IMG/VR virus record: IMGVR_UViG_2529292715_000014
Coordinates: 1 to 7,813 of that record
Length of the DNA stretch: 7,813 nt
Source of the DNA: a virus
Lineage: Duplodnaviria; Heunggongvirae; Uroviricota; Caudoviricetes
Reading direction: 5' to 3' (one strand)
Under the pieces are notes generated by a model. That model was not told the origin of the DNA and did no database searches. It saw only the letters and a list, made by a program, of their open reading frames with translations. Made by a program: the position numbers and the translations under genes. Positions 4,832-5,066 of the stretch are shown here, piece after piece (position 1 is the first letter of the stretch; the number at the start of each line of letters is the position of its first letter).

Positions 4832-5066
4832 GCAACTATGGCAATTTTGATTCCAGATATGTGAAAGATGTTCGACTTGGTTCACAGCAATATTATGGAG
4901 TGAACAACTGGCAAACATGGAATTTTCAGTGCCCTTCAGGTCATGTATTGTCTGGTATTAATGTTCAGGATACAGGTTCAACTCTGCCGATAATATTGCG
5001 GGTGTTTATTACAGACCGATTCAAAAGTATATAAATGGCACTTGGTATAATGTAGCGAGCGTTTAA
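4824..5066 (+). pseudogene. Tail-fibre variable segment, 3' part downstream of IS1, with an additional apparent frameshift
   Basis: The frame continuous with the upstream part gives ...IPGNYGNFDSRYVKDVRLGSQQYYGVNNWQTWNFQCPSGHVLSGINVQDTGS and then stops at 5032-5034. The conserved tail-fibre C-terminus [25 protein letters not shown] (stop 5064-5066) is read only in a different frame. Confidence 0.7.

Follow-up and report, generated by a model that had tools for sequence, protein, structure and literature searches.

A one-base deletion in a silent, IS1-interrupted tail fiber cassette of a Mu-like prophage remnant in Shigella flexneri

The 7,813-nucleotide stretch of DNA analyzed here (the window) carries a tail fiber cassette that lacks a single C between positions 4979 and 4980. 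The loss puts the end of the gene out of frame, is inherited within S. flexneri, and is absent from sister strains in which the surrounding prophage is less degraded. In all likelihood, it is a fixed 1-bp deletion in a silent Mu Sv-type cassette of a degraded SfMu/Mu-like remnant inserted in dpiA and represents pseudogene decay.

The deletion and the reading frames around it

Three-frame translation of positions 4824 to 5100 reproduced exactly the two frames described in the original prediction. In one frame, the upstream gene continues across IS1; this frame reads IPGNYGNFDSRYVKDVRLGSQQYYGVNNWQTWNFQCPSGHVLSGINVQDTGSTLPIILRVFITDRFKSI after the insertion, ends in ...SGHVLSGINVQDTGSTLPIILRVFITDRFKSI, and meets an early stop at 5032-5034. 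The conserved C terminus is confined to the neighboring frame. Following a stop at 4959-4961, that frame stays open from 4962 to its next stop at 5064-5066, one base ahead of the assembly gene's ATG. The parallel ending claimed for the other variable segment (6160-6645, minus strand) is present and reads ...RPIQYCINGTWYNAGSI. A 1-bp indel had been thought to lie around 4978-4990, and alignments against intact homologues located it there, as a CC doublet reduced to one C (site string GGTTCAACTCT in the window versus GGTTCCAACTCT in the homologues). The intact codons are GGT TCC AAC TCT GCC (G S N S A); the window reads GGTTC^AACTCT. Alignment of 4900-5075 with the fiber gene of the Escherichia coli PapRG-06-5 P2-like prophage, a P2-type phage, and SfMu contained one gap (ACAGGT-TCAACTCTGCC in the window; ACAGGTTCCAACTCTGCC, encoding G S N S A, in the three homologues), all aligned intact genes having one more C. 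Base-by-base comparison with two IMG/VR contigs, L010 and L011, placed the gap at window position 4979.

Between IS1 and the deletion (4832-4979, plus strand), the cassette keeps its original frame. From 4980 to 5034 (plus strand), the deletion gives rise to the out-of-frame tail TLPIILRVFITDRFKSI and its premature stop; the last 28 codons are shifted, and translation would end 32 nt earlier than in the original gene. The original C-terminal coding sequence runs from 4980 within the neighboring open stretch (4962-5066, plus strand), where it was recognized by identity to SfMu gp52, P2-like gpH, and Mu S (PDB 5YVQ chain A). Twenty-seven of its 28 residues match the SfMu and P2-like fibers, far above chance.

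The cassette is also interrupted by IS1 (4056-4823; 768 bp with 23-nt terminal inverted repeats), delimited by a repeat search, the IS1 DDE domain, and the empty site in L010 and L011. The element is flanked by the target duplication TATTCCCG(G) at 4048-4055/6 and 4824-4831/2. The extent of this duplication is ambiguous: it can be read as 8 bp (TATTCCCG) around a 768-bp IS1 or as 9 bp (TATTCCCGG; 4048-4056 and 4824-4832) around a 767-bp IS1. Without IS1 (4056-4823) and one target copy, ...CGSQVIPG joins NYGNFDSRYVK in frame, and the junction CGSQVIPG/NYGNFDS is exactly the empty site of IS1-free relatives.

Adding one C to the sequence freed of IS1 and one target copy yields a 328-amino-acid ORF. 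Its product is 92.8% identical to SfMu gp52 over 321 amino acids without a gap, matches residues 183 to 503 of the Mu tail fiber protein S (PDB 5YVQ chain A; E = 3.5e-131) in an alignment that crosses the lesion unbroken up to the final residues, and is identical to the S. flexneri protein P0002 in the protein collection. Because the repaired product aligns with both SfMu gp52 and Mu S 183-503, the cassette corresponds to the variable part of Mu S. As in a frameshift pseudogene, the reading frame of intact homologues is continuous across the site, and restoring one base restores the full-length family alignment. Among the E. coli matches listed that span the site, all but one are one base longer than the query. 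The exception, the NR363 assembly, was considered as a carrier of the same lesion and rejected, its gap lying about 20 nt downstream in a GGG run.

The silent cassette, its remnant, and the order of lesions

The cassette, which encodes a variable, receptor-binding part of the fiber, belongs to a Mu-type G segment with two opposed cassettes, in each of which a Mu S/S' homologue is followed by a Caudo_TAP assembly gene. The upstream part of the Sv-type cassette (3305-4055, plus strand) was assigned by homology to Mu S from residue 183 and by synteny with SfMu, and an intact U-type assembly ORF follows the cassette (5068-5595, plus strand; Pfam Caudo_TAP, E = 3.1e-36). On the minus strand, the opposed cassette comprises an intact U'-type assembly ORF (5624-6157), recognized as the inverted pair of 5068-5415, and the C-terminal part of an S'v-type variable segment (6160-6613; gp37_C), which is cut by IS600. 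Positions 5068-5415 and 5810-6157 of the assembly genes form a 348-nt inverted repeat with 70% identity, both ORFs being intact. IS600 itself (6613-7813, minus strand) was identified by E. coli records that annotate it as IS3-like element IS600 at 99.9% identity; it stands in place of the rest of the fiber gene, the partner gix, and the remaining prophage.

In Mu and SfMu, as PMC4406740 describes, Gin-mediated inversion fuses one variable cassette to the constant fiber part for expression. In the window, an intact gin-type serine invertase next to the segment was not found: the gin remnant (3002-3211, minus strand) lacks 380 internal bp that SfMu gin has, as is evident from the alignment with L003 (window 1971-3052 corresponds to L003 1-1083, and window 3048-4056 to L003 1463-2482). 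A 65-amino-acid Resolvase fragment is all of gin that is called in the assemblies L004 and L006. The gin region also holds a private SNP of the window (A at 3127; G in the others). What remains of the gin-proximal gix inverted repeat (3262-3295) was delimited by SfMu alignment and by a 29-nt inverted match at L003 4741-4769, and the 11 outermost bases of the repeat, ATTATCTAAAA in SfMu, are missing immediately upstream of 3262. Paired flanking gix repeats were not found in 2900-6800, where the damaged copy at about 3262-3295 is the only one and the partner position is IS600. The upstream constant fiber part (Sc) was not found either, since similarity to SfMu fiber genes ends at 6614, the start of IS600. 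The cassette as a whole (3305-5066) adjoins gin and faces away from the expected position of the constant part, which is the silent orientation. It lacks both a start codon and a promoter, since in Mu such a cassette depends on fusion to Sc in order to be read. In strain FDAARGOS_713 (L004), one extra A at 8241, equivalent to window 3309, lies in the A run at 3306-3312 where the cassette ORF mechanically starts; either a genuine polymorphism or an error in the homopolymer could account for it.

On the other side of gin, the Mu-type right end (1971-2938, minus strand; TGAAGCGGCGCACG... from 1971), recognized by SfMu alignment, is inserted in dpiA. The mom ORF (2086-2811, minus strand; 241 amino acids; Pfam Mom, E = 6.9e-75) and the com ORF (2732-2938, minus strand; Zn_ribbon_Com) are intact, although the remnant has lost nearly everything else. 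dpiA starts at 1627 and is cut after 1970, behind ...IAYERLG. The preceding dpiB (1-1527) has a 1-bp deletion of its own in a G run at about 1470-1473, so that the frame breaks off in ...EQGSVRVLTSPVNMALGCT and terminates at 1525-1527; the normal ending is found in a different frame (ORF 1518-1658). The extra G is present in L010, and the deletion is common to L004 through L007. The DpiBA two-component system is thus doubly inactivated in this strain, by the right end in dpiA and by the dpiB frameshift.

Earlier states of the locus are preserved elsewhere. A scan of the viral contig collection, with a pattern that allowed either allele and required the window's private SNPs, returned L010 and L011, which have the same remnant at the same dpiA site with about 99.9% DNA identity, are free of IS1, and retain the C (GGTTCCAACTCT). 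Contigs L012 to L016, named S. flexneri by their sources, carry the exact 328-amino-acid protein in the same remnant at the same dpiA site, again without IS1 and with the C kept; L012 (CP100042), L013 (AFOW01000008), and L014 (UGYT01000001) encode it at the same locus. The protein collection, too, has this product, named as S. flexneri (P0002 and strain 2850-71).

L010 and L011 already show three older lesions: the 380 bp missing within gin, the 11 bp missing from gix (the outer half of the gin-proximal repeat), and IS600 in place of the partner gix and the constant fiber part. Across 3305-5066, they differ from the window by IS1 and the lost C only, which marks both the IS1 insertion and the C loss as recent. 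By parsimony, the gin, gix, and IS600 lesions predate both events. Because IS1-free strains carry these older lesions, the cassette must have been fixed in its silent orientation before IS1 arrived or the C was lost. Decay after silencing, as the original prediction had it, therefore stands; silencing by IS1 alone does not, given that the IS1-free strains already bear the gin, gix, and IS600 damage.

All five deletion-bearing loci also have IS1 (one of them, L008, begins at the IS1 edge), and every IS1-free contig has the C, so these data fit either order of the two events; in that lineage, the C may even have been lost before IS1 arrived. Exact look-ups in the protein collection returned neither hypothetical intermediate, i.e., a frameshift without IS1 (317 and 310 amino acids) or IS1 with an intact tail (85 and 68 amino acids). 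The frameshifted post-IS1 fragments (74 and 57 amino acids) are likewise absent from that collection although their DNA certainly exists. Since gene callers skip such short ORFs, these negatives carry no weight for the order of the lesions.

Erosion next to IS600 has also continued. L010 and L011 keep 261 bp more of the opposed fiber gene before IS600 (L010 reverse complement 5676-5936). Beyond IS600, L012 to L014 (10059-12595) retain a truncated Mu transposase A gene, ner, and the repressor gene, and L010 and L011 hold about 2.6 kb of extra DNA at the same position (L010 reverse complement 7202-9798). The window's lineage has lost this fiber gene and A/ner/repressor material and must therefore have undergone further IS600-adjacent deletions (window 6613). 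In S. flexneri K-227 (protein P0009), the cassette is intact as far as ...AGVYYRP, where the IS600 end (MRCTGNSGHYHLFFF) takes over, at about window position 5000; an independent IS600-adjacent deletion there removed both assembly genes and the opposed fiber segment.

The most likely course of events starts with damage to gin (380-bp deletion) and the adjacent gix (11 bp), with the partner gix, the constant part, and most of the prophage disappearing behind IS600. This left the cassette noninvertible, promoterless, permanently silent, and presumably under no selection. One S. flexneri lineage then gained two more lesions, both probably neutral: an insertion of IS1 and the loss of a single C. 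Destruction of gin, of the two gix sites, and of the constant part would have left the cassette no way back to expression, so that the C loss would be a neutral replication error in dead DNA. That gin, gix, and Sc are gone points to neutrality, and the base was probably dropped through slippage of the polymerase or a simple error of replication.

It is very improbable that the C loss was instead selected, e.g., to remove the tip from a fiber fragment downstream of IS1 that is transcribed by read-out from IS1, or that the nested lesions form a lineage-marking series. The fiber tip would bind the assembly chaperone or the receptor. If the latter reading were true, the stepwise series (IS1, C loss, the 261-bp IS600-adjacent deletion, and the c-ner-A' loss) would be usable for S. 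flexneri typing.

Recurrence of the allele and alternative readings

The original prediction offered a sequencing error as the other possible origin of the frameshift, and this part did not hold. The whole 7,813-base window is 100% identical to part of the chromosome of S. flexneri serotype 3b SFL1520 (CP032513; L007), which PMC6424224 describes as assembled from MinION and MiSeq data. Contigs fetched by the exact sequence of the adjacent assembly protein revealed the identical deletion in five independently produced S. flexneri assemblies from different laboratories, comprising three haplotypes. Besides SFL1520, the carriers are L004 (CP054892; FDAARGOS_713, serotype 3a, Nigeria), L005 (a 922-kb contig), L006 (CP066809; a UK isolate), and L008 (a 1,735-bp draft-assembly contig). 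At 4984, a T replaces the C in L005, L006, and L008, and L004 is set apart by differences at other positions. The single-C allele reads GGTTCAAC and the CC allele GGTTCCAAC. Other S. flexneri assemblies have the extra C, and the difference thus tracks lineage rather than chance error. In the species-representative genomes, neither the deletion allele nor, subsequently, a pattern of either allele with the window's private SNPs found a match; this collection therefore evidently holds no genome with the remnant. The either-allele pattern had no match in the metagenome contigs.

An error of sequencing or assembly in one record, with a single continuous frame as the true sequence, would have some precedent, as long-read assemblies of this locus do contain indel noise. 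Single-base gaps interrupt A and T runs of L006 at 4362, 6652, and 7556-7557, and the gap of NR363 in its nearby GGG run comes from an assembly in which all four neighboring genes are flagged as frameshifted. The site of the deletion, however, is a CC doublet rather than a long homopolymer, and L006 agrees there despite its gaps elsewhere. Since the same deletion recurs in five assemblies, different laboratories, and three haplotypes, down to the short draft contig, a sequencing error is excluded as far as assemblies can show, and we consider this explanation highly improbable.

Hardly any more credence is due to a functional two-frame layout, i.e., to programmed -1 ribosomal frameshifting or to a fiber variant shortened on purpose. 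Programmed frameshifts are used in some phage tail genes, and the downstream frame of the cassette is still perfectly conserved. This conservation is expected of a recent lesion, the sequence having zero other differences from the intact S. flexneri allele. A conserved two-frame arrangement was found in no homologue, all intact relatives having one frame, and no slippery heptamer (X XXY YYZ) occurs in any frame of the overlap at 4955-5034. The gene is moreover split by IS1 and devoid of a start, a promoter, the constant N-terminal part, gin, and the partner gix. The absence of the layout from relatives, the missing heptamer, and the split gene without a start together exclude programmed frameshifting for practical purposes. 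That the short ending ...TLPIILRVFITDRFKSI should be the normal C terminus of this branch of the family, with RPIQ..INGTWYN in the other frame as a relic, is less probable still and can be set aside: nothing speaks in its favor, the nearest alleles (the same remnant in S. flexneri DNA of about 99.9% identity) end with the conserved RPIQ-Y-INGTWYN motif in frame, and the exact frameshifted products, with or without IS1, are absent from a collection of 15 billion proteins, an observation that weighs little for short fragments.

Comparison with known elements

For annotation, 3305-5066 is best represented as one pseudogene, IS1-interrupted and frameshifted, rather than as separate small ORFs. The deletion has little weight alone and makes no open question testable; it does provide a clean small case of stepwise Mu-like prophage decay in S. 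flexneri, as the earlier states are preserved in sister strains.

The end of the cassette is related to the C terminus of P2-type gpH, a fiber tip module common to the P2, Mu, and P1 families, and the protein endings are identical. Across the final 277 nt of the cassette and the beginning of the assembly gene, fibers of P2-like prophages and phages are 95.7 to 97.1% identical to the window; for the fiber of the E. coli PapRG-06-5 prophage, the value is 97.1% (last 277 nt). Where it occurs in P2-type elements, the module is intact and ends a full-length, noninvertible fiber gene, whereas here it lies in a broken cassette.

The closest architectural match is the G segment of Mu and SfMu, with the same order of right end, mom, com, gin, cassette with assembly gene, and opposed assembly gene with cassette. 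DNA identity between the window and SfMu is 92 to 96%, and a Mu/SfMu-like gix inverted repeat is present at the cassette start. Unlike in Mu and SfMu, gin and gix are damaged, IS600 takes the place of the partner gix and the constant part, IS1 and the 1-bp deletion have been added, and the rest of the prophage is absent.

Cryptic SfMu remnants have been reported in S. flexneri serotypes 1a, 3a, 3b, 6, X, and Y (PMC4406740). The organism and serotype group match those of the present remnant, by virtue of the 3b strain SFL1520 and the 3a strain FDAARGOS_713. Those remnants were detected by PCR and Southern blotting; the locus and single lesions analyzed here are not described in the sections of that paper on which this comparison draws. 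In the study of Jakhetia and Verma (2015; PMC4406740), the cryptic strains yielded no gin-mom PCR product, which is consistent with the damaged gin region of the window.

More broadly, Shigella pseudogenes arise by IS insertion and small indels, and the locus combines IS1, IS600, IS-adjacent deletions, and single-base frameshifts, which build up in genes that have lost their use. SFL1520 itself is reported to carry 355 IS elements, 43% of them IS1 (PMC6424224). Pseudogene decay of this sort, in a cryptic SfMu-like remnant such as PMC4406740 already reports for S. flexneri, is routine, and the deletion does not differ in kind from other Shigella pseudogenes produced by IS elements and indels, of which it is one further instance.
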